DNA of 64,000 nt from a virus (lineage: Duplodnaviria; Caudoviricetes), in the IMG/VR virus record IMGVR_UViG_3300044719_000048, positions 125,545 through 189,544 of that record; one strand, written 5' to 3'. The translations under genes were made by a program, and so were the position numbers. The notes below the pieces were generated by a model. That model had not been told where the DNA came from and ran no database searches. It was given only the letters and a program-made list of their open reading frames with translations. Of the stretch, positions 14,172-43,577 are shown in pieces; the first letter of the stretch is position 1; each line of letters opens with the position of its first letter.

Positions 14172-14186
14172 TCCCTATGAAAAGGA
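14172..14186 (+). promoter_or_regulatory. CUAUGAAAA-loop hairpin over SD (copy 1)
   Basis: TCC-CTATGAAAA-GGA. Confidence 0.8.
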
Positions 14187-14192
14187 AATATC

Positions 14193-14489
14193 ATGGCTAT
14201 CACTACCGAAGAAAAGGCTTTCCGTCAATTCCTGCGCTCGACGTTCAAGGCTCGCATGGCTTGCGACGAATCCGGCAACAACATCACCTCGCTCAAAGGC
14301 AAGACCGCGAAGGCTCAAATCCGCAACGTCGACACGGTGCTGGAGAACCTGCGCGCCAAGGCCAAGGTCCTGAAGGAGACGAATCGTTCGGTGACTTTCG
14401 CCTACCAGCAAGGCAAGAAAGGCCCCTCGGCGGAAATCACGGTGTCGCTGGCTGACGATCGCACGCTGACGATGGTCTCGAAACACTAA
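14193..14489 (+). CDS. basic hypothetical protein
   Basis: AAGGA SD; first gene after the promoter. Confidence 0.75.
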   Translation: MAITTEEKAFRQFLRSTFKARMACDESGNNITSLKGKTAKAQIRNVDTVLENLRAKAKVLKETNRSVTFAYQQGKKGPSAEITVSLADDRTLTMVSKH

Positions 14490-14507
14490 TGCGCAACGTA
14501 CTCTGAG

Positions 14508-14536
14508 GCGGCCCTGCAAAAACGGGGCTGCCTTTT
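14508..14536 (+). terminator. probable intrinsic terminator
   Basis: GCGGCCC...GGGCTGC stem followed by TTTT. Confidence 0.6.
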
Positions 14537-14556
14537 CTCACCTCAGTTCACTCAAT

Positions 14557-14571
14557 CGGCTATGAAAACCG
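14557..14571 (+). promoter_or_regulatory. CUAUGAAAA-loop hairpin containing the start codon (copy 2)
   Basis: CGG-CTATGAAAA-CCG. Confidence 0.75.
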
Positions 14572-14843
14572 CATACGAACTCTTTCTCGAATCTCTGGGC
14601 TTCACTGACGTACGGCAGATCAAGACCTCCGGCGTAGTCGAGCTCTACGTCGGCCAAACGATGAAGGCTGCAAAGAAACTCTTGCGCGGAAAGCGCCTGC
14701 GTTTCCCACTCATCGAGAAAGGGAGCATCGCTAACGCCCAGTTCCAGAAGCTGTACGCCGTACAGGACCAGAGGGTCGTCGGCCAGGTCCAGATTCTCGG
14801 GTACACCACCCACACTATCATCCAACTGGAGAACCTTTCGTGA
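14562..14843 (+). CDS. hypothetical protein
   Basis: 93-aa ORF overlapping the next gene; no SD. Confidence 0.65.
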   Translation: MKTAYELFLESLGFTDVRQIKTSGVVELYVGQTMKAAKKLLRGKRLRFPLIEKGSIANAQFQKLYAVQDQRVVGQVQILGYTTHTIIQLENLS

Positions 14844-15220
14844 GCTTACCCGACGACGTGCGCAGTCAGCTTGAGGCTTTCGTGAGTCGGCCAGTAGGGG
14901 ACATGATGCAGGTCGCGCGGAGCAATCTTGCGATTGACCAGTCGGGCATCAGTGCCTACTTCCGACTCAGCTACCGTTCTATTCGTGGGCTCATCAGTCC
15001 TGCTGTTGACTTTGCGCGCATCAGCATCGACCCTGAGTGCAGGGGACGCGGATACATGAGAGACATCTTGTCGATCTTGGAAAGCAACCCGAACAGGCTT
15101 CCGGTCTACGTCGAGTCGATGATAGACCCCGACCTCATTCCCGTGTTCGAGCGACGCGGGTACATCGTGTGTTCCGACGACGGGTACGGCGTCGTCGACT
15201 TAGTTTATCAACCCAAATAA
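14840..15220 (+). CDS. GNAT-like acetyltransferase
   Basis: ISIDPECRGRGY acetyl-CoA-binding motif; FERRGY. Confidence 0.6.
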   Translation: MSLPDDVRSQLEAFVSRPVGDMMQVARSNLAIDQSGISAYFRLSYRSIRGLISPAVDFARISIDPECRGRGYMRDILSILESNPNRLPVYVESMIDPDLIPVFERRGYIVCSDDGYGVVDLVYQPK

Positions 15221-15240
15221 CCTCTTCGGAGGGAGAAACA

Positions 15241-15555
15241 ATGCAGATCGTAATGTCCAATGGCGCTTCTAAAGAGGCACCGCTCAAACTCAAGACCGTT
15301 TATACGTTCCGCGGTCAGATCGTCAAAGTCACTCGGGGCACCAACCTTTTCGAGGCCGGCCCCAACGTGCAACGCAACTTACAGATCAACAAGTACGGTG
15401 CCAACTACGTGGAGGTCTTGGACGCCGAGACCGACCAACTGTATTACTCGCAGTCCCGCAGCATGAGCGGTAAGATCGGTGCGCCTCACTATGAATGGAA
15501 TCCCGAGGAGACTGAGCGCCGCTACGGCGCCACTGCTCTTCTACTCCCGAAGTAA
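15241..15555 (+). CDS. hypothetical protein
   Basis: GGAG SD before ATG 15241. Confidence 0.65.
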   Translation: MQIVMSNGASKEAPLKLKTVYTFRGQIVKVTRGTNLFEAGPNVQRNLQINKYGANYVEVLDAETDQLYYSQSRSMSGKIGAPHYEWNPEETERRYGATALLLPK

Positions 15556-15689
15556 TCGCAGGTCAGCATAGGCGACGTGCTTTATTAAAGGCCCACTCGA
15601 TTGGGCATAAGTCGCCAATCCATAACTAGAGGAGACCGTGTCCTGATGCCCCAAACTAAACGGTCCATCATCCTGCCCAGGAGTCTACA

Positions 15690-16265
15690 ATGTACACTGC
15701 AATCGAATTCAATGACGCAACTGATCGTGAACTACAGATGGCGGCGAAGTTTGCCGATGCAGGTGAGTGTCCTAAACTTCAGGTAATGGTCGAGCGTCCC
15801 GATCTTCGGGAACGCGACCGAGAAGCGTTGCGTGAGTACTTGGTTGATCGCGGCTACAAAGCGTTGCTGATCGAGACCGCGCGTCTTACTAGCAGTAGTC
15901 GCAACGTGGCATTCAGCACGGCTTTGCCGTTGACGCATAGTGCTGACGTGTCGAACCGAGGCAAAACCTTCTTGAGTGACCTCGGCTTCTTTCGGGTCAC
16001 TCCGATGATGAGCTTCGGTGCCCCGTCGCTGAAATACACGGTGTCTCACTCGTTCGAGGGGACTATCGAGATCCTGCACACACGTCATGATGTGTGGGAC
16101 TTCGAGCTCGCGGACATCAAGCCCAACATCGTGTGCCGGGACGGTCGATACGACGACTACATCTACAGTGTTCGTGCCAGCGGCACTGTGATCGGTCGAT
16201 TGACCGTACGCCGGTTCACTGACGAGCGTAGTGTTACCCATATTGAACTGCACCCACTTAACTGA
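15690..16265 (+). CDS. hypothetical protein
   Basis: AGGAG SD; 191 aa. Confidence 0.7.
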   Translation: MYTAIEFNDATDRELQMAAKFADAGECPKLQVMVERPDLRERDREALREYLVDRGYKALLIETARLTSSSRNVAFSTALPLTHSADVSNRGKTFLSDLGFFRVTPMMSFGAPSLKYTVSHSFEGTIEILHTRHDVWDFELADIKPNIVCRDGRYDDYIYSVRASGTVIGRLTVRRFTDERSVTHIELHPLN

Positions 16266-16276
16266 TCGGAGGACGT

Positions 16277-16615
16277 ATGCTCAATCTTCGCGAAGGCTTC
16301 TTCAAGTCGGAAGCCGAACCTGAGTTGCCCGCAGCTCGTGCACGCACAAAGCCGTGGCGTGGTCGTCGTGTGTTCTTGGAAGCACTAGCCAAAGTGCAGG
16401 CGTCCGAGAAAGTCTCGAAGAAGAAGTTCAAGGGCGCGAGCACCTGCCGGTGCTGTGGCGAAGCCAACGGTTCGGCAGAGTACCACCTCGTCATGGGCGA
16501 TGTTCTGACCGTCGTATGGCCGCAAGGTTTTGAGCACTACGTGCGCGAGCACAACGTCAGACCCGGTCTGATGTTTCATGATCTCATCCTGCAAATGGCT
16601 CAGGATCTCGAGTAG
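16277..16615 (+). CDS. Zn-binding hypothetical protein
   Basis: CRCC...WPQGFEHYVREHNVRP; GGAGG SD. Confidence 0.7.
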   Translation: MLNLREGFFKSEAEPELPAARARTKPWRGRRVFLEALAKVQASEKVSKKKFKGASTCRCCGEANGSAEYHLVMGDVLTVVWPQGFEHYVREHNVRPGLMFHDLILQMAQDLE

Positions 16616-16654
16616 TTTCCCACAACAGTTCCCAAAACAATAACAGAGGTTCTC

Positions 16655-16852
16655 ATGAAGTACCTGACTCTCCCAACTTGGTGTGCCCTGAAACTTCTGA
16701 TTCACGGTATCCCGGAGCACCCTTACGCTACGTGGTACCCGACGTTGGAATCATGGGCAGCTGATTCGCCTTCAGTCTATCGGCTTATCGACTTCGCGCT
16801 GCTCGCTATCATCGGCTCCTTTTTCTACAACTTTTTATCCACCTTCTTTTGA
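16655..16852 (+). CDS. small membrane protein
   Basis: GAGG SD; hydrophobic C-terminus. Confidence 0.55.
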   Translation: MKYLTLPTWCALKLLIHGIPEHPYATWYPTLESWAADSPSVYRLIDFALLAIIGSFFYNFLSTFF

Positions 16853-16863
16853 AAGGATTAGAT

Positions 16864-17622
16864 ATGAACTTTGACAAACGCTTCAACCACGCAATGGAAT
16901 ACCTGCTGTTTTTCAACGCACGTCCCCCGGCGGAAGGCACTCGCGTTGTGCAGCCAGGCGTAGACGTGGAGGCCCGTGAGACTATCCTTGCACTGCAAGC
17001 ACAGATAGAGGCCCTACAGCGCGGCATGGCTACCATTCACGGTTGGTTGATCGCACCGGGTGGTGGCAACATGAAAGGAAGTGAGCTCGACAAGATGCTC
17101 ACCGACGCCACCGACATCAAGCCTGTGGAGTTTCCACAGGCGGTCTTACACATGGCCTCTAAGCCGCACTCTTCTAGAACAACTAGAAACGAAGACCACG
17201 AAGACGACGGCGACGGCATGCCGCGCCTCAGCAAGATCAAACCACGCAAGCCCACGTCGGCAGCCGGGCAGCAACCTGCCCACAGCAGCGGCCGGAAGCA
17301 ACGAGGTCCGAAGCTGGAACAGCCTGCGACACTGAACCAGTGGTTCCGCAAACTCATGGACAGTACTGGGGTGATCCTCGACTTTGATCGGGTCTTGTAT
17401 CGTCATGCTCGATTCGAGCAGCCGAAAATCATCTTGCTTCCAGACTCCGACGAGGATCATCAGAAACTGATCGAGTGGACGCACTCTCATGCCAGCGACT
17501 ACGCCGTGCAGTACGGCACTGAGGAGGGCTCTCAGCAGCATTGGATTTCTATTCCTGTGGCTGCTTTGTCCGAGCTCGGACTCGCAGTCCCCAATGACGG
17601 CGACGGTCTCAGTAAAGGCTGA
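16864..17622 (+). CDS. hypothetical protein (C-terminal domain paralogous to next gene)
   Basis: AAGGA SD; shared W...L....G.....RF..P...AV.YG.EE pattern. Confidence 0.7.
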   Translation: MNFDKRFNHAMEYLLFFNARPPAEGTRVVQPGVDVEARETILALQAQIEALQRGMATIHGWLIAPGGGNMKGSELDKMLTDATDIKPVEFPQAVLHMASKPHSSRTTRNEDHEDDGDGMPRLSKIKPRKPTSAAGQQPAHSSGRKQRGPKLEQPATLNQWFRKLMDSTGVILDFDRVLYRHARFEQPKIILLPDSDEDHQKLIEWTHSHASDYAVQYGTEEGSQQHWISIPVAALSELGLAVPNDGDGLSKG

Positions 17623-21116: not shown

Positions 21117-21451
21117 GCGCGTCTGAGAAGGGCCATCTGCGTAGGGCATTCGAGAAGGAACTACGCTTGAAGCCCGAGCAGTGTTCAGTGAACGAATACG
21201 GCGAGTACACGCACAAGTTGACGCATGCGCTGTGGGCCGCGTTCAAGGCCGGACACGGATTCATGCACAAGCGGGGCACGTTCGTGGTCGCAGAGATTCA
21301 TGACAACCGACCGCAGTTCAAGCCCTTGCCAGTCACCTATGACTACCTGGATCACGCTCGTGACGCGCAGCGTAGAATAGCGATCCAGACGCAGTCGGTA
21401 ACGGCAGTGTTCCAACGCGTCTCAGCATTCAATCCTGTCAAGCCTGCCTAA
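21113..21451 (+). CDS. hypothetical protein
   Basis: ATGA-coupled ORF. Confidence 0.6.
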   Translation: MSASEKGHLRRAFEKELRLKPEQCSVNEYGEYTHKLTHALWAAFKAGHGFMHKRGTFVVAEIHDNRPQFKPLPVTYDYLDHARDAQRRIAIQTQSVTAVFQRVSAFNPVKPA

Positions 21452-21461
21452 TTTTTGAGCA
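21445..21461. promoter_or_regulatory. 17-bp palindromic operator (copy 1)
   Basis: TGCCTAATTTTTGAGCA. Confidence 0.7.
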
Positions 21462-21482
21462 CATCATATGTCTTTATGGGTG

Positions 21483-21511
21483 TTGCATTGCGTAAAGACA
21501 TATGATATACT
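21483..21511 (+). promoter_or_regulatory. sigma70-type promoter
   Basis: TTGCAT-17 bp-TATACT with an extended TG. Confidence 0.75.
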
Positions 21512-21538
21512 GTAGGCAAAGCAAACCCGCCTCTTAAC

Positions 21539-21555
21539 TGCCTAATTTTTAGGCA
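21539..21555. promoter_or_regulatory. 17-bp palindromic operator (copy 2)
   Basis: TGCCTAA-TTT-TTAGGCA with perfect arms. Confidence 0.75.
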
Positions 21556-21562
21556 ATTTTCC

Positions 21563-21600
21563 AGCGAAACCTGACGTTTCGCTCTCCCTATGAAAAGGAG
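21563..21600 (+). promoter_or_regulatory. tandem hairpin plus CUAUGAAAA hairpin over SD (copy 3)
   Basis: AGCGAAAC/GTTTCGCT stem abutting CTCC-CTATGAAAA-GGAG. Confidence 0.8.
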
Positions 21601-21607
21601 CTACATC

Positions 21608-21769
21608 ATGGCATTGACCCCTGAACAAATTCTCGAACGATTGAACACGCGTGACCCTGACGACAGCTTGCACGACGATTATTTCGTCGATGCCGAAGAC
21701 GAGCAGGCTCGCATGCGTCGCGGTACGCGCACTCCGACCTCGGCTGCTATGAAAGGAGACGCGAAATGA
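21608..21769 (+). CDS. small hypothetical protein (53 aa, not in ORF track)
   Basis: AAGGAG SD; ATGA overlap with the next gene. Confidence 0.65.
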   Translation: MALTPEQILERLNTRDPDDSLHDDYFVDAEDEQARMRRGTRTPTSAAMKGDAK

Positions 21770-22032
21770 GCAAACTCTACGACAATGCAAAGACCGTCAC
21801 CTTGAAAGCTGTGCGCGCTCTGTATCCCGGATGCCGAATCGAAGCCTACTTCGTAGACGAAGAAACGCCCACCAACTACATCGTAGTCGAGCGCCCAGAC
21901 GCTCACGCGTCAGTCTGGGACGTCAAGGTCGTTCCCGAGGAAGCGTGGAAGAATCCGAAAGCACGGCGCGAATACGCTCATCCCAGTTCGCTGAACACCG
22001 ACCGCTGGACGCTGCTCGGCGAAGCGCCTTAA
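21766..22032 (+). CDS. hypothetical protein
   Basis: AAGGAG SD. Confidence 0.7.
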   Translation: MSKLYDNAKTVTLKAVRALYPGCRIEAYFVDEETPTNYIVVERPDAHASVWDVKVVPEEAWKNPKARREYAHPSSLNTDRWTLLGEAP

Positions 22033-22041
22033 CCCAATCCC

Positions 22042-22077
22042 GCCCGGCCAAGCCGGGCTCTCCCTATGAAAAGGAGA
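22042..22077 (+). promoter_or_regulatory. tandem hairpin plus CUAUGAAAA hairpin over SD (copy 4)
   Basis: GCCCGGC/GCCGGGC stem abutting TCTCC-CTATGAAAA-GGAGA. Confidence 0.8.
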
Positions 22078-22081
22078 CATC

Positions 22082-22342
22082 ATGTCTATGTACTTCGGCG
22101 ACATCGCCAAAACCGTCAAGCCCATCCCAAACGTTCGTATAGGGACTGAAGTCCAGATTTCCGCAGTCGGCGTGTACAAAGGAAAGCTCTCGTACACTGT
22201 CGTAGTACGCGACGCAGCTGGAAACCTCGTCGACGAGGTCGGCCCTTACCCTGCCTCTGCGTTCCAGTTCGTCGACCGCTGCACCACTGGCAGCGAGCTC
22301 TTACTTATCGACTGGCTCTCCAAGCACGGAAAGGGTAAATGA
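22082..22342 (+). CDS. hypothetical protein
   Basis: AAGGAG SD. Confidence 0.7.
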   Translation: MSMYFGDIAKTVKPIPNVRIGTEVQISAVGVYKGKLSYTVVVRDAAGNLVDEVGPYPASAFQFVDRCTTGSELLLIDWLSKHGKGK

Positions 22343-22584
22343 TGCGTATCGTCTTCACTCGCGGCAACATGGTCGACACTGGCTGGAAGCTCACCAACAC
22401 GCCACTTGGCTTGTTCGCAGAGCGCGAGGACCCCGAGGGAGGTATAACACTGTTCATGCGCGATCAGGGCGGCGACCGCCTGGAGTTCACCCCTCCGAAA
22501 CTCGAATCGTTCAACGACGGCAAGTTCATGGCCCATCTGTTCGACGTGCTGGCCGAGAACAACACCAACTACACTCTCGTATAG
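22339..22584 (+). CDS. hypothetical protein
   Basis: Coupled ORF. Confidence 0.65.
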   Translation: MMRIVFTRGNMVDTGWKLTNTPLGLFAEREDPEGGITLFMRDQGGDRLEFTPPKLESFNDGKFMAHLFDVLAENNTNYTLV

Positions 22585-22593
22585 GAGTCTCTA

Positions 22594-22809
22594 ATGAATC
22601 TCGGACACTTGCGCGCGTTTCTTGCACGCGCCGATGTGCAAGCGCTGGCTGACGATGTTGAAGTCGGGTGCGTCGGTCACTATGGTGAGCTGTGCCGCTT
22701 CCAAGGAGACGATCCTTCGCTTCAGACGCTGAAGCGTAATACCTTCGACTACACTATGGTTCAGGCCGTCATCTTGCCCGGCATTGATGTTGGACCTGAA
22801 CCCGATTGA
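22594..22809 (+). CDS. hypothetical protein
   Basis: AGGAG SD. Confidence 0.65.
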   Translation: MNLGHLRAFLARADVQALADDVEVGCVGHYGELCRFQGDDPSLQTLKRNTFDYTMVQAVILPGIDVGPEPD

Positions 22810-22814
22810 TCTTT

Positions 22815-22850
22815 CCCGGCTGTGGAAGCCGGGTTCCCTATGAAAAGGAA
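22815..22850 (+). promoter_or_regulatory. tandem hairpin plus CUAUGAAAA hairpin over SD (copy 5)
   Basis: CCCGGCT/AGCCGGG stem abutting TTCC-CTATGAAAA-GGAA. Confidence 0.8.
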
Positions 22851-22859
22851 TTATCTATC

Positions 22860-23186
22860 ATGTCTTTCCGTGACGATCTGGTCAAAGACCACCTCGAACA
22901 GAAGCACCGGGCCTCGCAGCAGCCGCCCTCGTACGTGCTGATGCTGCACATGAATCCGGACGCGTACAATCTCGACCTGCACTTGTGCGTTCAGCACGTG
23001 CTGTTGGACCACCTGAACATCTGTGCGGCCGACGCCGAGAAGGCTATCAAGGGCGCCGCCAACAGTGGCGCTTCGGTAATCAAGCCCGTGACCAAGGACG
23101 TCGGCGAGTCCATGATGCAGCGAGTCGAGACCTGCATGGTATTGCTACTGAGTACCAACTTCAAAGTCGCCCTCGAACTGCTGTAG
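22860..23186 (+). CDS. ClpS-like protein (divergent)
   Basis: PPSYVLMLH...VQHVL...A...GASVI...TKDVGE parallels ClpS. Confidence 0.6.
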   Translation: MSFRDDLVKDHLEQKHRASQQPPSYVLMLHMNPDAYNLDLHLCVQHVLLDHLNICAADAEKAIKGAANSGASVIKPVTKDVGESMMQRVETCMVLLLSTNFKVALELL

Positions 23187-23192
23187 CCTCGT

Positions 23193-23209
23193 TTCCCTAT
23201 GAAAAGGAA
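23193..23209 (+). promoter_or_regulatory. CUAUGAAAA hairpin over SD (copy 6)
   Basis: TTCC-CTATGAAAA-GGAA. Confidence 0.8.
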
Positions 23210-23214
23210 TGACC

Positions 23215-23532
23215 ATGAAGTTCGTCTATGACAAAACGCCTGCTCACCATGCCCTCCGCCTGCGCAAGCTGCAGGAGCAAATCGAGAAGGAGCGCGCCAA
23301 ACTGCGCGACCTCGAAAAGGAGGCCGAGCAACTCAAGACCTTCCTGCTGAAGGTGAATCGTGGTAAATCGTTCGCATTCAACGGCACTCTGTATCAGATG
23401 TGCGTGAAGGTTACGCGGTCGGCGCGCATGGTCCTCGACCAAGAGGAATGCAAGCGCCTGCTGAAATCCAGAACCCCCTACAAACCCGCCAACGTGGTCA
23501 AAGTGGCCATCGATTACGTCTACGAGGACTGA
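23215..23532 (+). CDS. coiled-coil hypothetical protein
   Basis: AAGGA SD with good spacing to ATG 23215. Confidence 0.7.
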   Translation: MKFVYDKTPAHHALRLRKLQEQIEKERAKLRDLEKEAEQLKTFLLKVNRGKSFAFNGTLYQMCVKVTRSARMVLDQEECKRLLKSRTPYKPANVVKVAIDYVYED

Positions 23533-23533
23533 C

Positions 23534-24409
23534 ATGAACAAATACGAACTGTTGAAGAACGACATCATCGAAGTCGACGGCCAGAAGCTGTACCGCATAC
23601 GTGCGTTGCGTACCTTCGGCCACGTTGTCGAGGGAGACGAGGGCGGATACATCGCCACCGAAGACAACCTCTCCCATACAGGTAAGGCGTGGGTTGGCGA
23701 AAGGGCGAAGATCTACGATACTGCCCGTGTCCTCGACAACGCCCACGTCGCCTGGGCTGCCTCTGTCTATGGTGCAGCTACCATAATGGGAGACGCCAAG
23801 GTAGGCGGATTCTCGCGAATCTACGACTCAGCCACCGTGAGTGGAAGGGCTCAGGTTCGTGGCGAGTCACACGTCTTCGGCTCTGCCTCGGTTGCAGGCG
23901 ACGCTCATGTAGCGCTCTCTTCTCGGGTCTATGGTTCTGCCTGCGTTGAGGGTCACGCACGCGTACTCGGTGCTCAGGTCTATCAGCACGCCATTGTTAG
24001 TGGTAGTGCCATTATCCGCGGCTCCGTTACGGTTCGGGGTCACGCTAACATACACGGCAACGCTGAGATTCGACGTGCTGACGCATACGAACCAGTACTC
24101 ACGTGCACTGACGACTGGGTCGTGTTCACCAACGTCGGTTCTGAGAACGGTGCTCTGACCGTCTACAGAGCAAGTTCCAGCATCTTTCTGTGCACGCGCG
24201 GGTGCTTCACTGGCACGGTTGACGACTTCCTCCACGCGGTACGTATGGAACACGGAGCCAGCGTCATCGCACAGGAATACGAACTTCTGATTCAAATGGC
24301 GAAGCTGCGACTGAATCGGCCTAAGCCGGCCGATTCGCCCGCCATTGAAGGCAGCGCGGACCTCAATCCTCTTGCAACTCCGGCCATCGAAGACTGGGAG
24401 GAAGCGTGA
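23534..24409 (+). CDS. left-handed beta-helix (hexapeptide-repeat) phage protein
   Basis: RIRALRTFG.V..GD.GGYI start; repeated [AV].V.G.A hexapeptides; GCFTGT. Confidence 0.8.
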   Translation: MNKYELLKNDIIEVDGQKLYRIRALRTFGHVVEGDEGGYIATEDNLSHTGKAWVGERAKIYDTARVLDNAHVAWAASVYGAATIMGDAKVGGFSRIYDSATVSGRAQVRGESHVFGSASVAGDAHVALSSRVYGSACVEGHARVLGAQVYQHAIVSGSAIIRGSVTVRGHANIHGNAEIRRADAYEPVLTCTDDWVVFTNVGSENGALTVYRASSSIFLCTRGCFTGTVDDFLHAVRMEHGASVIAQEYELLIQMAKLRLNRPKPADSPAIEGSADLNPLATPAIEDWEEA

Positions 24410-24732
24410 TCATCGAGTGCTACGTGTTTATGCCGTACGAAGGCCAACTACGCTTCTCCTACGACACTGAGACCAACCAGATCGGAAAGTCCAATCCTAC
24501 TGCTGACGCGCCTCTCGGCGTCTTCAAGTTGACGGGCCAAAGACCGCCGACCTGCAAGGAATTCATCTATTCGGGAAAGCATCACTTTGATGACAACATT
24601 CGGCTGATCATCCTCCGTTGGATCATTCCACGCCTCGCCAACGAGGTTCAAGTGGAGCTTGGCGACGAACTACTTGGGGCCTTTCCGTTCAGTCAGGGCT
24701 TCAAGTTCACAGCACGCCGCGTTGCTCAGTAA
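24406..24732 (+). CDS. hypothetical protein
   Basis: GGAGG SD; GTGA overlap. Confidence 0.65.
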   Translation: MIIECYVFMPYEGQLRFSYDTETNQIGKSNPTADAPLGVFKLTGQRPPTCKEFIYSGKHHFDDNIRLIILRWIIPRLANEVQVELGDELLGAFPFSQGFKFTARRVAQ

Positions 24733-24746
24733 ATAGTAGTACACAA

Positions 24747-24761
24747 TCCCTATGAAAAGGA
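24747..24761 (+). promoter_or_regulatory. CUAUGAAAA hairpin over SD (copy 7)
   Basis: TCC-CTATGAAAA-GGA, just after AGTAAATAGTAGTAC. Confidence 0.8.
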
Positions 24762-24768
24762 ACTAATC

Positions 24769-25215
24769 ATGGCACTCCAAATCCGGCTCCGCAATCAACT
24801 CGACGAAGACACGGTCCACGCTACAGTGCGTTGCGATCAACACACGTACAAGGCATTGAAGCAGTTCATGCACTGCAACGATCTCGTCGGCATTCGTTTC
24901 CCTCATGGCGTCCGCTTGCTGCCTCGTGGCCGCGGCTGGTATCGTCTGGAGGCGTCGAATTCGCACCGCGCAGCTGAGAAAGTGGAGTTCGCTGTTAAAG
25001 CCATGAAGCGTTTCCAGAAGGAGCAGGAGCGTGGAGTCGATGAAGCCATCAAGCTCTTTGCTCCCGTCATGAAGGATCCCGATCTCAAGATCGTCAGTTT
25101 CAGCAACGCGTACTCGGAAGGCGAGTACGGATATATGGGCGTCCCGCAGCGCAAGCCGGCGTCTCAACACAAACTCAACGCGCTGGTCGCCAAGTTCGGC
25201 CGGCCGCAAAACTAA
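24769..25215 (+). CDS. hypothetical protein
   Basis: AAGGA SD. Confidence 0.7.
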   Translation: MALQIRLRNQLDEDTVHATVRCDQHTYKALKQFMHCNDLVGIRFPHGVRLLPRGRGWYRLEASNSHRAAEKVEFAVKAMKRFQKEQERGVDEAIKLFAPVMKDPDLKIVSFSNAYSEGEYGYMGVPQRKPASQHKLNALVAKFGRPQN

Positions 25216-25224: not shown

Positions 25225-25560
25225 ATGGAGCTCGCAATGTCTCTCACCACGCACCAACTGGGTCTGGTCCAAGAACCGACCAAACGAAAGTTCGTCTCCC
25301 GAGCGGAGACCGTGCCGAAAGTCAATACGGTAATCGACATCGACATCAACTTCGTCGTCTTCGAGGACGCTGACGGCAATCCGAAGACGCCGATGACGAA
25401 GGCCCGCTATGACAGCAAGGTCAAGAAGTGGGTGCAAGTGCCCGTGTCGATGGCCGGTCTCATGCTGTTCTTCAACACAACCCCCACCGAGAAGCACACG
25501 AAAGCACGCATTCAGTCAATCATTCCGAATGGCCGCGCGTGCTATGTGGAGCCCGAATGA
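25225..25560 (+). CDS. hypothetical protein
   Basis: ORF in the gene run. Confidence 0.65.
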   Translation: MELAMSLTTHQLGLVQEPTKRKFVSRAETVPKVNTVIDIDINFVVFEDADGNPKTPMTKARYDSKVKKWVQVPVSMAGLMLFFNTTPTEKHTKARIQSIIPNGRACYVEPE

Positions 25561-26321
25561 AGCTCGTACTGTGGCGGCCGCCACTGGATCTTGCAATGCT
25601 GGCGGCCTACAACAAGATGCGAGCGGCAGCGGAGAAGCAGCGCACGTACTATGAGCGCGTCATCAAGCAGGTGGACCACATCGTAGGCCGGTTAGCAAAC
25701 GATTACTGCGAGAAGGAGCTGCTTCACATAGAAGACCTCCAGCGCGAGCTCCGCCTGATCACGAAAGGCACGCCTCTGACGGAGGCCTTGTCACCTGATG
25801 ACAAGGAGCCGATTCTCACATCGACTCCGGGCTTTAGTCAGCGACAGTACGATGCGCACACGGAACTGCTGAAAAAGGCGTACCGCAAGGTGGCAATGCT
25901 GTGTCACCCGGACCGCGAAGGCGGAGATCATTCAGTCTTCCAAGAGGTCGAGATCGCGTATAAGATGCGAGACCTCAATCGCTTGAACGCGATCTATCTG
26001 TCGATCCTGCAGGGCCGCAATTTGTATTGGCAACAATCAGAAGGTGTGTACCACGTCAGTTCTGAGTACCATCGCTACGGCGTGGAGCTTGAACTGCTGC
26101 AACAAACAGCCGGTTGGCGGGCTACACGCCTGTATCTTGCTGGGCAAGTAAATAGTGCTGCGGAGATCGTTCGTGTGTATCTCACGGACAAAGTCGCAGC
26201 ATTGCTTAACGAAATCAACTACGTCATAATCAAAGGACAACCAAATGGCAAAGAAGGAACAGAAGGTCGAGAAATCAGACAAGAAGTCGTCGAAGAAAAA
26301 TTCTTCTACCAAGGGAAGTGA
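25557..26321 (+). CDS. J-domain (DnaJ-like) protein
   Basis: LKKAYRKVAMLCHPDREGG...FQEVEIAY. Confidence 0.8.
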   Translation: MKLVLWRPPLDLAMLAAYNKMRAAAEKQRTYYERVIKQVDHIVGRLANDYCEKELLHIEDLQRELRLITKGTPLTEALSPDDKEPILTSTPGFSQRQYDAHTELLKKAYRKVAMLCHPDREGGDHSVFQEVEIAYKMRDLNRLNAIYLSILQGRNLYWQQSEGVYHVSSEYHRYGVELELLQQTAGWRATRLYLAGQVNSAAEIVRVYLTDKVAALLNEINYVIIKGQPNGKEGTEGREIRQEVVEEKFFYQGK

Positions 26322-28084: not shown

Positions 28085-28215
28085 TAGTACGTAGGGCCGT
28101 TAGCTCAGTTGGTTAGAGCAGTTGACTCATAATCGAAAGGTCGCCGGTTCAAGCCCGGCACGGCCTACCAAGCATTCGCAGTAAATAGCAGTACGCACAA
28201 TCGTGCTAGTAAATA
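28076..28215 (+). promoter_or_regulatory. three AGTAAATAG phage-type promoter motifs flanking the tRNA
   Basis: AGTAAATAGTAGTAC (28076), AGTAAATAGCAGTAC (28180), AGTAAATAGTAGTGC (28208). Confidence 0.7.
28094..28170 (+). tRNA. tRNA with CAT anticodon, probably tRNA-Ile2 (lysidine)
   Basis: Cloverleaf with GGGCCGT/ACGGCCT acceptor stem, D-loop AGTTGGTTA, CTCATAA loop, GGTTCAA T-loop and encoded CCA. Confidence 0.9.
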
Positions 28216-29618: not shown

Positions 29619-29636
29619 AGTCTATGAAAAGCTCTA
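29616..29636 (+). promoter_or_regulatory. CUAUGAAAA hairpin containing the start codon (copy 8)
   Basis: TAGAGT-CTATGAAAA-GCTCTA, a 6-bp stem with one G-U pair. Confidence 0.8.
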
Positions 29637-30361: not shown

Positions 30362-32320
30362 ATGGCAAAGGAAAAGAAAGTCGCGGAGTACAGTAGCGGC
30401 TCTATTGAAATCCAAGGCGGTCTCGATGGCGTTCGCAAGAACGCGTCGATGTACATGGGATCGACTGGAGTGGATGGCGTATGGAAGTTCGTCGGCGAAC
30501 TCCTCGACAACGGCGTGGACGAGCATCTGGCGGGCCGCAACAAAGCCGTCATGCTGCACGTCGACTCGGATGGCTCCTACTGGGTGCTCGACCAAGGCAA
30601 GGGCATTCCGCAAGGCGTCAAGGAAGTCCACATGCATGTCAACGGCAAGGACATCGTCAACAAGATTCCGACGATGCAGGCCGTGTTCGGTGAACTACAC
30701 ACGTCCGGCAAGTATCGTTCCGACGCCTACAAGAATTCGATTGGTACTCACGGTATCGGGTCGAAGGGAACGAACGCCACGTCTGAGTTCTTCACCGTAC
30801 ACACGTACTACAAGGAACAGTGGTACACGGTCGGGTTCAAGAAAGGCAAGCTCATCTCACCAGTCCAGAAGCTCAAGAAGGCTCCGAAGGGTCCTGACGG
30901 GAAACCGCTCAAAGGCGGTACGTGCATCCACTGCAAACCTGACCCCACGATCTACTCAGCCAAGGCTTTCCCGCTGTCGATGGCCGTCGAGTGGGCTGAG
31001 ATCACGGCCTACCTGAATCCCGGTCTCGGCATCGTCTTGTCGTCGCCGAAGAGCCGGAAGACCTATCTGTCGAAGAAGGGACCTACCGAGTACGTGAGCA
31101 ACCGCGTCACCAAGCTGAAGGCCGAGTACCTGACCGACAAGATTTTCGAGTTCAAGTCCGACGTTGGTGAAGTCGTGCTGGCATTCACGAATGCCGAAGG
31201 TGTAGACGTGCGAGGCTTCACGAACGGTCTGTCCAACAAGGAAGGCGGCACGCACGTCTCGTCGGCAGTCGACGGCATCTACGATGGCCTATGTCAGGCA
31301 CTGGTGAAGGCAGGGAAAGAGAAGCTGGTCTATGCCAAACAGAAGAAAGGCGAGAAGGGTAAGCGTACGATCTTCAAGGTATCCGACTTGAAGGAAGGCA
31401 TGGTCGGTCTGGTGAATGCAAAGCTGCACAAGGCAGAGTTCTCGTCGCAAGACAAAGCGCGCTTGACCGACGCGCGCATGGGCAAACCCTTCCACGAGCT
31501 GGTGGTGAAAGACGCAATCGCGTTCTTCTCCAAGCACTCGAAGGTAGCGATTCAGCTGGCTGAACGGGCCGGCAAACTCGCGCAGCTGAAGACCAACTTC
31601 GCGCTGTCGAAGAAGACGCTGACCGAGTTGAACAAGTTGAAGAAGAAAGGCATGAGCACCAAGTATGTGCCGCCGTCAAGTGGCAAGGCATCCGAGCGCG
31701 AGATCTTCATCGTGGAAGGTGACTCGGCAGGTGGCCCGGCCAAGCAGGCCCGATTCCCCTACCAAGGCATTCTTCCCATCCGAGGCAAGATCAAGAACGT
31801 GATCGCCGCGAAAGGCGACAAGGGGCTGGATTCGGAGGACATCCTCAACATTCTGGCAGCGATCGGGTACGACCCGAAAGCCAGCGATCCATATGCGAAG
31901 CTGGCCACTGGCAAAATCATCTATCTCGCAGACCCGGACCCTGACGGGCACCACATCAACTGTCTACTGCTCGGCCTGACGTACAAGTTTCTGCCCGAGT
32001 GCTTCGACCGCGGTATGGTCTTCGTTGCGAAGACGCCCGAGTATTACGCGATTCACAAAGGCCGCATGTACACAGCCGACGGTGCACGTGCCCTACGGTT
32101 GAAGATGGACAAGGACAAAGTACCGGCCTCAGTAAATCCGATTCACATAAAGGGCTGGGGTGAGATTGACCCTGCCGTGATGCGTGTGCTGGCAATGAAT
32201 CCCGACACGCGGACGCTGATCAAGATCAATCCTCTCAAGGATTCGGACAGTGCGTTTGCCAATCTCATGGCCGAGTCGGCGGACTCCCGTCGCAAACTGG
32301 CTTGGGGAACTGAAGAATGA
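30362..32320 (+). CDS. gyrB: type IIA topoisomerase ATPase/TOPRIM subunit (GyrB/ParE-like)
   Basis: ELLDNGVDE, DQGKGIP, GTHGIG, EGDSAGG, PIRGKI, DPDPDGHHI. Confidence 0.95.
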   Translation: MAKEKKVAEYSSGSIEIQGGLDGVRKNASMYMGSTGVDGVWKFVGELLDNGVDEHLAGRNKAVMLHVDSDGSYWVLDQGKGIPQGVKEVHMHVNGKDIVNKIPTMQAVFGELHTSGKYRSDAYKNSIGTHGIGSKGTNATSEFFTVHTYYKEQWYTVGFKKGKLISPVQKLKKAPKGPDGKPLKGGTCIHCKPDPTIYSAKAFPLSMAVEWAEITAYLNPGLGIVLSSPKSRKTYLSKKGPTEYVSNRVTKLKAEYLTDKIFEFKSDVGEVVLAFTNAEGVDVRGFTNGLSNKEGGTHVSSAVDGIYDGLCQALVKAGKEKLVYAKQKKGEKGKRTIFKVSDLKEGMVGLVNAKLHKAEFSSQDKARLTDARMGKPFHELVVKDAIAFFSKHSKVAIQLAERAGKLAQLKTNFALSKKTLTELNKLKKKGMSTKYVPPSSGKASEREIFIVEGDSAGGPAKQARFPYQGILPIRGKIKNVIAAKGDKGLDSEDILNILAAIGYDPKASDPYAKLATGKIIYLADPDPDGHHINCLLLGLTYKFLPECFDRGMVFVAKTPEYYAIHKGRMYTADGARALRLKMDKDKVPASVNPIHIKGWGEIDPAVMRVLAMNPDTRTLIKINPLKDSDSAFANLMAESADSRRKLAWGTEE

Positions 32321-33813
32321 AAAAGACAAAGACCAAAAACGTAGAGGCGTCCAAGGGCAAGATCCTCACGCAAAGTATTACCGACTTCGGTTTCGTCTCG
32401 TTGAAGCTGTACGCCGACGAGGTGAATCTGGAGCGCGCGATTCCAGACATCATCGACGGCCTCAAACCCGGCCTGCGGTTGACCATTCACGGCTCTGCTG
32501 AAATCGCGAAGACGCAGTTCGCTAAGGCCGCTCTGATCGTCGGTCACGTCATGGGTAACTACTACCCGCACGGCGACAGTGGCATTTACGGTGCAATGGT
32601 GACGAACGTGCAATCGCTGATTCCTCTGCTGCACGGCAAGGGCAACTGGGGTTCGATCACGGATGGCCCTGCCGCCTATCGTTACACGAACGCGCGGCTC
32701 TCCAACTTCGCGCGACTGGGGTTCGACCCCCACTACGCTAACCCGGAGGTCTCGTCGTACGTACCGAACTATGACGAGCGGTTGACCGAGCCCGTGTCGA
32801 TTCCGTTTCCTCTGCCTGTCATCTTGTTCAGCGGGGCTGAAGGTATTGGCTACGGCGCGGCGTGCTCGATTCCGTCGTTCACTCCTGAGTCTGTTGCGGA
32901 GGTCATCAAGCGCCTCCTAAAGGGCGAGAAGATGAAAGTCGAAGACTTCGCGAAGGCGATGGAGCCCGATTTCAAGTGGGGCGGTCAATTCGTGCGGACA
33001 AAGGAGAACCGCAAGGCGTGGATGGAAATGTTCACGTCCTCGCGAGCCTCCGTGTTGTTCGAGTCGCCTCTTCAAATCGACACGGCCAAGCACATCGTGA
33101 AGATCAACGAATGGCCGAATGGTGTAGACCCCGAGAAGGTCTGCCTGTGGGCGCGCGGCCTGCCTGAGACCCAGCAGGCATTCCCTTCCAAAGGCGGCAC
33201 CGAATTCACCTTCGTGATGAAGAAGGGCTACAACTCGGTGCAGTTCGATGCATGGGTGAAGAAGCTGGCGCAGAAGACTCGCGCGAAATCCAGCTTCAAC
33301 ATAAACGTGACGCGCCGCACTGCAGTGGTGAACGATGGCGTCGTCGGCTACAATGTCAAGCTCATGAGCCTGTCCGTCCCGCAACTGATCATGACGTGGC
33401 TGAAAGAGCGTCTGGCCACTGAGATTCGTTCGCTGGACTACCGGATTCGCAAGCAGCAGGAAGCCATCGCCTACTCTGAACTGCTGATCATGGCGGCCCA
33501 AAAACTGGACATCATCGTCCCCATCATCAAGAAGTCGAAGCAACCAAAGGAGGAGCTCGCCAAGAAACTGAAGATCACGCTGGAGCAGGCGAATCAGATT
33601 CTGGACCTCACGCTGCGCAAACTGACGCGCCTGGATCAGGAAGCCATCGAGCAGAAGCGCAAGGAGCAACTGCAGGAGTTGAAGCAGCTGGAGAAGTGGC
33701 GCAAGAATCCGAAACCCAAGATGATCGAAGACACCGACCGCGCGCTCGAAGCCATCGAAGCCGACCGCAAGTGGTATGCGTCGAAAGACAAACAGGAGCT
33801 CACGCTGTCGTAA
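32317..33813 (+). CDS. gyrA: type IIA topoisomerase breakage-reunion subunit (GyrA/ParC-like, no C-terminal pinwheel)
   Basis: DGLKPG, YYPHGDS, GNWGS and AAYRYT catalytic Tyr; only 498 aa. Confidence 0.95.
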   Translation: MKKTKTKNVEASKGKILTQSITDFGFVSLKLYADEVNLERAIPDIIDGLKPGLRLTIHGSAEIAKTQFAKAALIVGHVMGNYYPHGDSGIYGAMVTNVQSLIPLLHGKGNWGSITDGPAAYRYTNARLSNFARLGFDPHYANPEVSSYVPNYDERLTEPVSIPFPLPVILFSGAEGIGYGAACSIPSFTPESVAEVIKRLLKGEKMKVEDFAKAMEPDFKWGGQFVRTKENRKAWMEMFTSSRASVLFESPLQIDTAKHIVKINEWPNGVDPEKVCLWARGLPETQQAFPSKGGTEFTFVMKKGYNSVQFDAWVKKLAQKTRAKSSFNINVTRRTAVVNDGVVGYNVKLMSLSVPQLIMTWLKERLATEIRSLDYRIRKQQEAIAYSELLIMAAQKLDIIVPIIKKSKQPKEELAKKLKITLEQANQILDLTLRKLTRLDQEAIEQKRKEQLQELKQLEKWRKNPKPKMIEDTDRALEAIEADRKWYASKDKQELTLS

Positions 33814-33832
33814 CTAATTGTCAATGTCGAAT

Positions 33833-33849
33833 TGCCTAAATTTTGTGCA
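33833..33849. promoter_or_regulatory. 17-bp operator (copy 3)
   Basis: TGCCTAAATTTTGTGCA. Confidence 0.6.
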
Positions 33850-33877
33850 TCAGCTTGCCGTTGTTTTTCTGCCTGAC

Positions 33878-33894
33878 TGCTCAAAATTTAGGCA
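33878..33894. promoter_or_regulatory. 17-bp operator (copy 4, inverted)
   Basis: TGCTCAAAATTTAGGCA. Confidence 0.7.
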
Positions 33895-33914
33895 GCATTG
33901 AGCCCCGTCAGAGC

Positions 33915-33944
33915 TTGCTGTTGAGAAACCGCATGTGATATAAT
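33915..33944 (+). promoter_or_regulatory. sigma70-type promoter
   Basis: TTGCTG-18 bp-TATAAT with an extended TG. Confidence 0.75.
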
Positions 33945-33969
33945 GAACACGCAGCGTCTCATTTATCAT

Positions 33970-34007
33970 GCTGCCTAATTTTTGAGCAGCTTCCCTATGA
34001 AAAGGAA
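33970..34007 (+). promoter_or_regulatory. 17-bp operator (copy 5) abutting CUAUGAAAA hairpin (copy 9)
   Basis: GCTGCCTAATTTTTGAGCAGC followed by TTCC-CTATGAAAA-GGAA. Confidence 0.8.
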
Positions 34008-34013
34008 ACCATC

Positions 34014-39928: not shown

Positions 39929-39939
39929 CACCTTTGCAA

Positions 39940-39952
39940 GGCTATGAAAACC
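39940..39952 (+). promoter_or_regulatory. CUAUGAAAA motif containing the start codon (copy 10, weak stem)
   Basis: GG-CTATGAAAA-CC. Confidence 0.55.
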
Positions 39953-40129: not shown

Positions 40130-40143
40130 CAAGAGACCCATAA

Positions 40144-41213: not shown

Positions 41214-41231
41214 CACTTACAAGGACAGAAC

Positions 41232-41567: not shown

Positions 41568-41761
41568 AAATGAGACTCGACACTCATCTCTACAATCTAC
41601 TCAAGCAGTACTTCGACGCCAGCTCCATCACCGAAAAGCAACGCCTGCAAGAACTCGCTCTCACACATCTCGAGAAGCGCGATCAGGTGGGCCGCGCCAT
41701 CTCCCTCGACGCATGGGAGACCATCGTCGATGCCTTCGGAACCAACTGAAAGGAAATTCAC

Positions 41762-42046: not shown

Positions 42047-42054
42047 GGACCACT

Positions 42055-42339
42055 ATGAACCGCCCTGAACTCCTGGCCTACACAAGGGCCGTACCGTCCA
42101 CGCCTGCGCTGCGCACCTTGCTGCAAGGTATCGACGAATCTATTGCCGAGGCCAACTCGGCAGTGACTCTCATGAAGACCGTGATCTCGTGCGTCGATAT
42201 GGACGGCGAGAACCTTCGTGAAGCCTCGAACATGGTGCACTATGCTCTCAAGTACGAGAAGGCTCACGCCAAGCTCTCCATTCTGTTCCTGTCTCTCGCC
42301 CAGACTCTGCAAGGTATGGGCCACAACATCGACTACTGA
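42055..42339 (+). CDS. hypothetical protein
   Basis: GAGGA SD. Confidence 0.65.
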   Translation: MNRPELLAYTRAVPSTPALRTLLQGIDESIAEANSAVTLMKTVISCVDMDGENLREASNMVHYALKYEKAHAKLSILFLSLAQTLQGMGHNIDY

Positions 42340-42341
42340 CT

Positions 42342-42671
42342 ATGATTGACACTACTCTCCAAGACTTTCTTCCCAAGACGCTTGATGAGCGTCTGGCCAA
42401 GCTGCGCGAGCGCTTGAATCAAGCCTGGCCTACGTTCTCGACGTGTGGCGGCTATGACAGGAATAGCCTGTATCTCTGTGATCACGAGCAGGGAGCTATG
42501 GTGCGCTTCTATCGTGCAGGTCGACCAATCACGTTCGATCCTGTCGGCGCGGTGAAGCACGGTGCTATGTGGCACCTGAGCGGTCCGATCAACGACGTGA
42601 CGAAATTCAACAACCCGCAGATGCATGCGTATTTGGAATCCAACGAACTGAGCTGGGTGATCATCTTATGA
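42342..42671 (+). CDS. hypothetical protein
   Basis: ORF in the gene run. Confidence 0.65.
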   Translation: MIDTTLQDFLPKTLDERLAKLRERLNQAWPTFSTCGGYDRNSLYLCDHEQGAMVRFYRAGRPITFDPVGAVKHGAMWHLSGPINDVTKFNNPQMHAYLESNELSWVIIL

Positions 42672-42922
42672 AAGACGCAAACGAACTCCTCTACTGGGCC
42701 GCACTCGCGGCAGGCGCACTGGCGTTCCTCGCGTGGCGGCGGCGTCGCAAATCGGATAACCGCGAGTTCAAGGAGGGAGAGGCCGAAGCCAAACGCCTTC
42801 TCAAAGCCGGAGTATTCCCGGCGGCAATCCTGTCCTACATCGAGGTTCAGCGCTCGCGCGGCATGAGTGGTCCGTACGAGATGGGCCTCAAGAAAGCGCT
42901 CTCCAAAGCGGAGGTCGAATGA
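42668..42922 (+). CDS. membrane-anchored small protein
   Basis: N-terminal TM segment followed by RRRRK. Confidence 0.65.
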   Translation: MKDANELLYWAALAAGALAFLAWRRRRKSDNREFKEGEAEAKRLLKAGVFPAAILSYIEVQRSRGMSGPYEMGLKKALSKAEVE

Positions 42923-43404
42923 GTCGCCTGATCTCCGATCAGATCATTGAGCGTTCGCGCTCGATCTGGCGCATGGCCGAAGACCAAGAGCGCTCGGTCA
43001 TTCGGTCGGCGCTACTCGATGTGACTATCGATGCAGCTATGGAGCTGGCGTACAAGTCGATGCAGCTGATCGATCAGTACGCGAGCGTTGGGCCATCACG
43101 CCAGCAACGGGTTATGCGCGATCTCTTGACGCTGTGGCGCAAGCTCGTGCGCAACGTCAAGGCCGTGAACAGCGACCATCCTATAGGCGAGCACCACCTG
43201 TATCTCGTGTTGCTTGACAGCTGGGGCATTCGCATGAACGCCTATGAGAAGTTATTTCCGACGTGCTCCGATGTGAAGCTCCTGTATCACCAGCGCTTTG
43301 GTTTGTGTCAGCCACTCGCTGGACTCGCCGTCGATGCAAAGCGTAAAACACTCGCACGCGCTCGCGTCAGGGAAATCCTTGATGCCTATGCAGGGAACGC
43401 CTAA
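42919..43404 (+). CDS. hypothetical protein
   Basis: GGAGG SD. Confidence 0.7.
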   Translation: MSRLISDQIIERSRSIWRMAEDQERSVIRSALLDVTIDAAMELAYKSMQLIDQYASVGPSRQQRVMRDLLTLWRKLVRNVKAVNSDHPIGEHHLYLVLLDSWGIRMNAYEKLFPTCSDVKLLYHQRFGLCQPLAGLAVDAKRKTLARARVREILDAYAGNA

Positions 43405-43411
43405 ACCTACC

Positions 43412-43460
43412 CAAAAGCCGGGAAAACGATGTGGAAAACCGTCGTTTTCCCGGCCTTTTG
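43412..43460. terminator. long hairpin, possibly a bidirectional terminator
   Basis: CAAAAG-CCGGGAAAACGAT...GTCGTTTTCCCGG-CCTTTTG. Confidence 0.6.
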
Positions 43461-43482
43461 CGCCATATCAGGCGGAAAACTG

Positions 43483-43512
43483 TTGTGTTTCTGGAAAGAG
43501 GTGTGATATACT
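43483..43512 (+). promoter_or_regulatory. sigma70-type promoter
   Basis: TTGTGT-18 bp-TATACT with an extended TG. Confidence 0.7.
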
Positions 43513-43540
43513 GAAAGCGTAGCGTCTCCACAATACAAGC

Positions 43541-43577
43541 TGCTTAAAAATTAAGCAAATTCCCTATGAAAAGGAAT
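43541..43577 (+). promoter_or_regulatory. 17-bp operator (copy 6) plus CUAUGAAAA hairpin (copy 11)
   Basis: TGCTTAA-AAA-TTAAGCA, 1 nt, then ATTCC-CTATGAAAA-GGAAT. Confidence 0.8.

Follow-up and report, generated by a model that had tools for sequence, protein, structure and literature searches.

Eleven genes in the 64-kb window analyzed here (IMG/VR virus record IMGVR_UViG_3300044719_000048, positions 125,545 to 189,544) carry on their ribosome-binding sites (RBSs) an RNA hairpin with an invariant loop, CTATGAAAA in DNA letters, and a stem that changes in sequence while it keeps pairing. This element is probably an undescribed switch that jointly controls the translation of many early genes. 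The source record comprises 189,544 nt with 55.7% G+C, and the window is its final part. The gyrB and gyrA genes (30362–33813) match those of Ralstonia phage phiRSL1 (NC_010811.2) and of the Burkholderia phages BCSR5, BcepSauron, and BcepSaruman at 65–73% nucleotide identity, and on these sequence grounds the genome is that of a distant phiRSL1-like jumbo phage, seen only in metagenomes. The whole record (G000) and G001, a 189.7-kb IMG/VR contig, are each approximately 80% complete, and a further record, G002, is 65% complete. Gene starts were placed by codon-usage gene calls made in this analysis.

The window contains 11 exact copies of CTATGAAAA, all on the plus strand, where 0.26 would be expected from dinucleotide shuffles, none of 100 of which reached 11. 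The same 11 were the only copies in the whole 189,544-nt genome, and the minus strand had none. The initial annotation had reported these 11 coding-strand copies, had estimated well under one by chance, and had named a random genome-wide placement as a refuting outcome; the first two statements were confirmed, and the scan disclosed no additional copies. Its term 'phage-wide' was an overstatement, as all the copies are confined to 30 kb of one plus-strand gene block. One-mismatch variants of the word were found 14 times on the plus strand and 14 times on the minus strand, which is the background level; because these counts are equal, the exact word forms a sharply bounded class, not the top of a fuzzy peak. 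A covariance model built from all copies and run over 765 kb (G000, G001, G002, and phiRSL1) returned only these 11 and five copies in G001, and it failed to reach the loop variant of phiRSL1 described below. An exact 14-mer scan of viral contigs gave only single chance matches per contig.

Every one of the 11 copies was located at a gene start, on an RBS. Eight have the form (N)TCC-CTATGAAAA-GGA(N'), in which AAGGA(G/A) spans the end of the loop and the 3' arm. Since an ATG follows 5–10 nt after the GGA, this AAGGA(G/A) is the Shine–Dalgarno (SD) sequence, and the element lies 16–22 nt before the AUG. In the other three (loops at 14560, 29622, and 39942), the ATG inside the loop is the best start of the downstream open reading frame (ORF). 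This division into eight SD-type and three start-type copies, proposed earlier, was borne out by the gene calls.

The SD-type copies, all on the plus strand, begin with copy 1 (14172–14186; TCC-CTATGAAAA-GGA; gene start 14193), which lies 30 nt past a −10 promoter motif at 14136–14145. Copy 3 (21584–21600; CTCC/GGAG; gene start 21608) follows a −10 motif at 21503–21512 and a palindrome, whereas copy 4 (22059–22077; TCTCC/GGAGA; gene start 22082) and copy 5 (22834–22850; TTCC/GGAA with two G–U pairs; gene start 22860) each adjoin a GC-rich hairpin. Copy 6 (23193–23209; TTCC/GGAA) precedes a gene starting at 23215 with MKFVYDK, and copy 7 (24747–24761; TCC/GGA; gene start 24769) is found 22 nt past a second promoter-like motif, AGTAAATA, at 24728. 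Copy 9 (33991–34007; TTCC/GGAA; gene start 34014) and copy 11 (43559–43577; ATTCC/GGAAT; gene start 43581) lie past −10 motifs at 33936–33945 and 43504–43513, respectively. The start-type copies, on the same strand, are copy 2 (14557–14571; CGG-CTATGAAAA-CCG; loop ATG at 14562), which comes after a terminator-like hairpin with a T run; copy 8 (29616–29636; TAGAGT/GCTCTA with a U–G pair; loop ATG at 29624), whose gene encodes 234 amino acids and heads the gyrB-gyrA unit; and copy 10 (39940–39952; loop ATG at 39944), which also follows a terminator-like hairpin and has the weakest stem, GG/CC only (2 bp).

All 11 element-bearing genes are first cistrons behind an intergenic gap, and the set consists of the first cistrons behind early promoters together with the gyrase unit, which is the type of gene that RegA and RegB turn off in T4 (PMC3014915). 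The genes that come after them mostly overlap by 4 nt or start within approximately 20 nt and are for that reason probably translationally coupled. Most genes of the same block have ordinary SD sequences without the element. Searches with Pfam and PHROGs on ten genes behind the element, and with Pfam on ten conserved neighbours, gave a single Metallophos match.

To examine the stem, 53 distinct copies from nine related phage lineages were aligned without gaps. Pairs 1 and 2 were formed in all 53 copies, pair 3 in 50, and pair 4 in 39 (UA 23, CG 11, GC 3, and AU 2), while pairing at the fifth position was near chance. The covariation score was 0.310 as compared with 0.094 in shuffles, none of 500 shuffles reached it, and all slid registers scored lower. 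All 23 copies with a T at position −4 had an A at +4, and 11 of the 16 with a C had a G (Fisher p = 1e-6, uncorrected for relatedness). As the pair counts carry no such correction, more weight was placed on double substitutions between orthologous copies and on the arms of the start-type copies. A post-promoter copy reads CTCC/GGAG in G001 and ATCC/GGAT in the metagenomic contigs L143 and L144, and the copy before the MKFVYDK gene (copy 6) reads TTCC/GGAA or CTCC/GGAG when its orthologues in contigs L146, L151, and L152 are included. The start-type copies have their 3' arm within coding sequence, and the 5' arm has been altered to match it (CGG/CCG, AGAGU/GCUCU, and GC/GC); the U–G pair of the copy at 29622 forms in the sense-strand RNA only. 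These patterns indicate that the base pairing of the stem is selected, and the compensatory stem changes around an invariant loop are those of a hairpin operator. The earlier proposal of an RNA hairpin family at translation starts, whose changing flanks keep pairing and whose stems should covary in homologous phages, is thus supported as real, selected, and sense-strand, even if the copy at 39942 retains only 2 bp.

The fold itself is weak. Its energy is not distinguishable from that of shuffles (z −0.3 to −0.8), and in RNAfold it is often not the minimum-energy fold. The shifted register that RNAfold favours (CCU/AGG with a 6-nt loop) is excluded by the slid controls and by the start-type copies. 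Pairing of the loop UAUGA with a UCAUG at the real start was also considered; TCATG was present in 13 of 47 copies versus a background of 11%. It was not kept in relatives, and the pairing was rejected.

Relatives were reached by two routes. The gyrB protein led to G001 (67% identity) and to L143 and L144, in which TCC-CTATGTAAA-GGA occurs five, three, and three times, respectively, always on the coding strand and before an ATG. The 148-amino-acid protein encoded behind copy 7 had 22 homologues at 54–85% identity, which led to contigs L146–L154; these carry CTATGAAAA 3–9 times per 5–20 kb, always on the plus strand and always on an RBS. The genome of phiRSL1 has (N)TCC-CATCGAAAA-GGA(N) five times, on the plus strand in every case, and an ATG follows at SD distance in four of the copies; the copy at 43583 has no ATG within 25 nt. 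Three of the five (7840, 43583, and 228395) lie inside annotated ORFs (ORF019, ORF087, and ORF339), suggesting that starts were mis-called or genes merged there. In L186 (ENA ERZ926398, 243 kb), the core AACGAAA[AC] was present ten times on the plus strand and never on the minus strand (positions 5056–17552; 1.2 expected in 20 kb), and at least seven of the ten copies are on an RBS with complementary flanks, the loop reading xAACGAAAx. The element counts for the 184–243-kb metagenomic contigs come from 20-kb stretches. The hairpin ahead of the orthologue of the 148-amino-acid protein reads CCTC-CAATATTAA-GAGG in L183 and, as a single copy, ACCC-ACAGAAAAG-GGGT in BCSR5. No repeated loop word was found in BCSR5, BcepSauron, PaBG, or G002 under the patterns tried.

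The results showed that the loop is constant within a genome and different between lineages. It reads CUAUGAAAA in all 45 distinct copies of the clade of this phage, CUAUGUAAA in eight of eight distinct copies of the second clade (that of G001), and CAUCGAAAA in five of five copies of phiRSL1; together with UAACGAAAA, these are the lineage-specific words, and their common pattern is C-NNN-G-N-AAA or close to it. By lineage, positions 1–6 are CUAUGA, CUAUGU, CAUCGA, and UAACGA, with a change of A to U at position 6 between close lineages. Since the last three As form an extended SD with the GGA(G), their conservation needs no special explanation. Positions 1–6, fixed in each genome yet differing by lineage, do need explaining, and their constancy within genomes and change between lineages would fit co-evolution with a specific reader.

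These loop positions bear on the possibility that the element acts only in cis, as an anti-SD/SD mini-hairpin that adjusts or slows translation or displays an extended SD (AAAGGAG), with a loop word fitted to the host ribosome (S1 or 16S rRNA) and hence host-dependent. Such a module would account for the extended SD and the anti-SD-like 5' arm, and RBS hairpins of the same build with other or very short loops do exist in L185, L183 (CAATATTAA), and Achromobacter phage Motura; moreover, phiRSL1 encodes no RNA polymerase of its own and relies on the machinery of its host (PMC5468394). However, it leaves unexplained why positions 1–6 are constant per genome but change between close lineages and why the same loop is found in start-type copies that lack an SD, and most genes of the block manage with ordinary SDs. 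We therefore regard an action in cis alone as rather improbable.

The AUG in the loop is an accident of this clade's word, since the first six positions differ between lineages, and the clade has used it three times as a start codon. In the second clade, the AUG is followed directly by UAA. As a universal feature the loop AUG did not hold, phiRSL1 having CAUCGAAAA, a loop with no AUG, and another lineage AACGAAA. An upstream ORF beginning at this AUG was rejected: in the SD-type copies the frames run for 4–164 codons, of which two share the reading frame of the gene and six do not, and the AUG-UAA of the second clade and the AUG-less loop of phiRSL1 speak against it. The initial annotation had also suggested that the loop folds as a CUA bulge with a U-GAAA-A cap. 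The A-to-U change fits the 'N' of such a GNRA-like cap, but the fold is unproven because phiRSL1 has a C in place of the closing U.

The extended −10 motif TGNTATAMTG occurs five times in the window as against 0.17 expected (14136, 21503, 33936, 43504, and 51292; all on the plus strand), and four of the five are 30–76 nt upstream of an element copy, in accordance with the earlier statement that four copies follow sigma70-type promoters. A conserved start region resembling GAAAGCGTAGC comes after each of these motifs, and promoters of this type were also seen in G001, L143, L151, L153, L182, and L185. AT-centred palindromes (TGCCTAATTTTTAGGCA-like) flank the sigma70-type promoters at 21452–21607, 33814–34013, and 43405–43580; they are probably DNA operators and would explain the 'second hairpin' on the 5' side of the post-promoter copies. 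The motif AGTAAATA has 14 copies versus 0.38 expected, on the local gene strand (for example at 6671, 20252, 24728, 28180, 28208, and 35058). It is kept ahead of the gene for the 148-amino-acid protein in nine of 11 lineages and probably represents a middle- or late-promoter core similar to T4 TATAAATA. Since the element lies downstream of these two promoter classes, it is most likely an RNA element inside the 5' untranslated region and not a promoter.

A short, invariant, strand-specific word upstream of genes is also what a DNA-level signal would look like, whether a promoter for a phage transcription factor or polymerase or some other DNA-binding site, and the word resembles the CTATA-G(A/G)A-type promoter cores of single-subunit polymerases. 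But the stems covary, one pair is U–G, there is no conservation 5' of the 5' arm, and the copies come after the two enriched promoter-like motifs; a transcript beginning within the element would lack the SD or the AUG. In addition, G000, G001, and phiRSL1 yielded no domain of a multisubunit RNA polymerase, and phiRSL1 has been reported to be without RNA polymerase genes and sensitive to rifampicin (PMC5468394). Thus, a DNA-level signal is the least probable of the explanations considered.

Antitermination of the nut/boxB type, in which an N-like protein would bind GAAAA or GUAAA and let the polymerase pass the terminator-like hairpins, must also be weighed here, as four copies lie just past early promoters and terminator-like hairpins are frequent in the region. 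The 3' five bases of the loop, GAAAA or GUAAA, agree with the GNRNA pentaloop pattern of boxB in lambda and P22, and boxB stems likewise covary. BoxB, however, has a 5-nt loop closed by a 5-bp stem and acts in antitermination together with boxA, whereas the element has a 9-nt loop that is not closed around the pentaloop and leaves four unpaired bases 5' of GAAAA. No conserved word was found outside the hairpin in the aligned copies, and hence no boxA-like companion. Most copies come after, not before, the adjacent hairpin, and all 11 overlap the RBS, which antitermination does not require. We consider this mechanism very unlikely.

A lineage-specific invariant loop, a stem conserved only in its pairing, and a hairpin too weak to act alone together form the pattern of a hairpin operator read by a protein. 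As the placements on the SD and on the AUG share only the 30S binding site, they suit a steric repressor or a nuclease that cuts the RBS; they do not suit an activator, which would need a fixed geometry. Because the hairpin alone is weak, the default state is probably 'on', a binder being needed to close it. Our tentative preference, held at slightly less than an even chance, is for a coordinated translational shut-off of early units through a shared hairpin operator and a phage-encoded factor. The hairpin is built into the RBS of the first cistrons of early and middle units in phiRSL1-like jumbo phages, with an anti-SD-like (Y)UCC as the 5' arm, the SD core GGA(G/A) as the 3' arm, and a 9-nt loop that starts with the lineage word (CUAUG in this phage) and ends in AAA; in the start-type copies, the same loop lies on the start codon with the arms replaced by other complementary bases. 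One phage-encoded trans-acting factor, most likely an RNA-binding protein, would recognize the loop on its short stem and cover the SD or the AUG, so that translation of the first cistron would be turned off and, through translational coupling, that of the genes behind it as well. In this manner approximately 11 early units would be switched off together, as with T4 RegA. The hairpin, its conservation, its covariation, and its placement on the RBS within 5' untranslated regions are observed; the trans factor, its encoding by the phage, and repression as the effect are what we infer. An antisense RNA as the trans-acting partner was rejected, as no intergenic locus of G000 contained the loop complement and 7–8-mer complements within coding sequences occurred at background frequency.

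An invariant loop, a stem that presents it, and overlap with the RBS are equally the signatures of a processing or decay site, at which an endoribonuclease of the phage or the host would cut at the loop and kill the RBS or separate cistrons, the upstream GC hairpin staying as a protective 3' end. Many copies do adjoin a GC-rich hairpin on their 5' side, which would stabilize the upstream fragment after a cut, and T4 RegB offers a precedent in that it functionally inactivates early mRNAs at the SD (PMC3014915). Nevertheless, no RegB homologue was found in G000 or G001 and no nuclease family among the proteins scanned, and RegB sites are unstructured, structure being inhibitory to the enzyme (PMC3014915). 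Cleavage at the element is therefore an unlikely explanation, if one to be kept in mind.

Several points weigh against a shared hairpin operator with a phage-encoded factor. Pairs 1–3 of the SD-type copies are invariant, so the covariation rests mostly on pair 4, the few start-type copies, and the orthologous changes, and the association at pair 4 could partly reflect founder cassettes if the copies spread by duplication. A 9-nt loop on a stem of 3–4 bp has marginal thermodynamic stability. That the effect is repression and not activation is again something that we infer. The trans factor was not identified among the proteins scanned with Pfam and PHROGs, and neither RegA (PF01818) nor RegB (PF10715) gave a match at E ≤ 1 in G000 and G001, both of which are approximately 80% complete. 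The L186 form is a looser variant of the element, as its loop differs in the 5' part between copies of the same genome. Finally, L185 (JGI 3300026456, 184 kb) has tight CCTTT[TC]AAGGAG hairpins on the RBS at 4660, 5014, and 9980 (three versus 0.03 expected) with loops of 3–4 nt and no common loop word, which looks like plain SD masking in cis in a distant relative.

The gene behind copy 7 (24769–25215, plus strand) encodes a 148-amino-acid protein of the phiRSL1 ORF317 family with an invariant RGxGWYR hairpin; among the genes that bear the element, it alone has orthologues in phiRSL1 as well as in the G001 clade. In 16 of 16 lineages, including BCSR5, Motura, and L182–L186, the RBS of this gene has the element or a similarly built hairpin. 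When 11 lineages were compared, the sequence upstream of the gene aligned only at AGTAAATA and the hairpin, and the proteins are 31–39% identical between the most distant lineages; the element is thus kept where its surroundings have diverged. The family comprises 80 sequence clusters at E ≤ 0.001. The protein is present in the element-bearing phages and was not found in BcepSauron, PaBG, or G002, the last being only 65% complete; the co-occurrence of protein and element may be simply phylogeny.

No Pfam family matched the 148-amino-acid protein. Its AlphaFold2 model, with a predicted local distance difference test (pLDDT) score of 78.5, had no Foldseek match in the PDB below E 0.3, Rpb11-like subunits being the best, and in BFVD it matched its own family only. 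In a wide structure search the best Z score was 6.4, and many KH domains scored 5–6, within the noise range of the tool; DUF3378, the N-terminal domain of RNase HIII, was likewise not above noise in an atlas search, with a template modelling (TM) score of 0.5. None of these matches led to a fold assignment. The protein is a speculative candidate for the trans-acting factor that would read the hairpin. There are precedents for autoregulation, as RegA, RegB, gp32, and gp43 act on their own messages. It is possible, if doubtful, that the protein, as a new fold class, and the hairpin are a co-evolving pair in which an ancestral operator on the protein's own mRNA was copied, in some lineages, to the RBS or the very start codon of up to a dozen unrelated early operons. 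If true, jumbo phages would have a translational regulon that is lineage-coded and expandable, autoregulated by the 148-amino-acid protein.

In Motura (L181:5647 and 5980), two neighbouring genes, one of them of the ORF317 family, share the RBS cassette TAAGGAAAAATCGAAATG, whose SD is placed in a hairpin loop between the arms CGAT and ATCG. Near the gene for the 148-amino-acid protein, the gene caller left 684 nt of the window empty (25561–26244), where an ORF is present at 25428–26321; a DnaJ-like protein is annotated at the syntenic place in L151, L185, and Motura (gp051). A tRNA-Met (CAT) at 28094–28170 on the plus strand has a G1–U72 pair and an anticodon stem without the three G–C pairs, and for these reasons it does not qualify as an initiator, so that it may belong to the elongator Met or the Ile2 type. 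A tRNA-Met is also present at the corresponding syntenic position in Motura. A paralogous gene family whose proteins start with MK[IL]QAA[AT]RL has many minus-strand sites in G002 and one site at G000:797.

At gathering thresholds, the window's tRNA was the sole Rfam match there, with none at the element, and a search of 21400–25000 at E ≤ 10 also gave no match at the element. The motif strings were absent from the searchable literature, in which the papers on phiRSL1 and jumbo phages are silent on the element. The earlier claim that the element is undescribed thus agrees with what was found.

To our knowledge, T4 and the RNA phages are nearly the only phages whose post-transcriptional control has been worked out in detail; the genes of jumbo phages are mostly 'hypothetical', and we know of no account of how their early genes are shut off. 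The element marks the first cistrons of approximately 11 early units and is kept, with lineage-specific loops, in environmental jumbo phages and in phiRSL1. Since phiRSL1 grows on Ralstonia solanacearum in the laboratory, the question is directly testable. If a dedicated reader exists, the lineages would provide naturally orthogonal hairpin–protein pairs, a potential tool for translational control. As an aid to annotation, the element fixes true start codons and operon heads, several of which appear to be mis-annotated in phiRSL1.

Among the nearest known systems are hairpin operators. In the T4 gp43, MS2, Qbeta, and PP7 operators and in U1A hairpin II, a protein reads the loop on a short stem that covaries freely; these operators overlap the SD or the AUG, binding represses translation, and they have a single target and are mostly autogenous. 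The element differs from them in being present in 5 to at least 11 copies per genome on unrelated genes, and its loop and stem sequences are unrelated to theirs. With respect to the number of targets it is closer to T4 RegA, which represses approximately 30 early and middle mRNAs, including its own, by binding at or just 5' of the AUG and blocking the 30S subunit (PMC3014915). [quoted passage not shown] RegA sites, however, are unstructured, AU-rich, and poorly conserved, whereas the element is a hairpin with a covarying stem and an invariant loop that in eight of 11 copies lies over the SD; neither a RegA protein nor unstructured, AU-rich AUG sites were found here. T4 RegB inactivates early mRNAs at the SD (GG*AGRAYARAA), controls its own mRNA, and has a role in early shut-off; it needs an unpaired GGAG and ribosomal protein S1, structure being inhibitory (PMC3014915). 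In the present element, GGA(G/A) is found in eight of 11 copies but within the stem, and three copies are without GGA. A translational operator regulon is of a known kind, and it is the hairpin family, its use in multiple copies, and its lineage-coded loops that are new.

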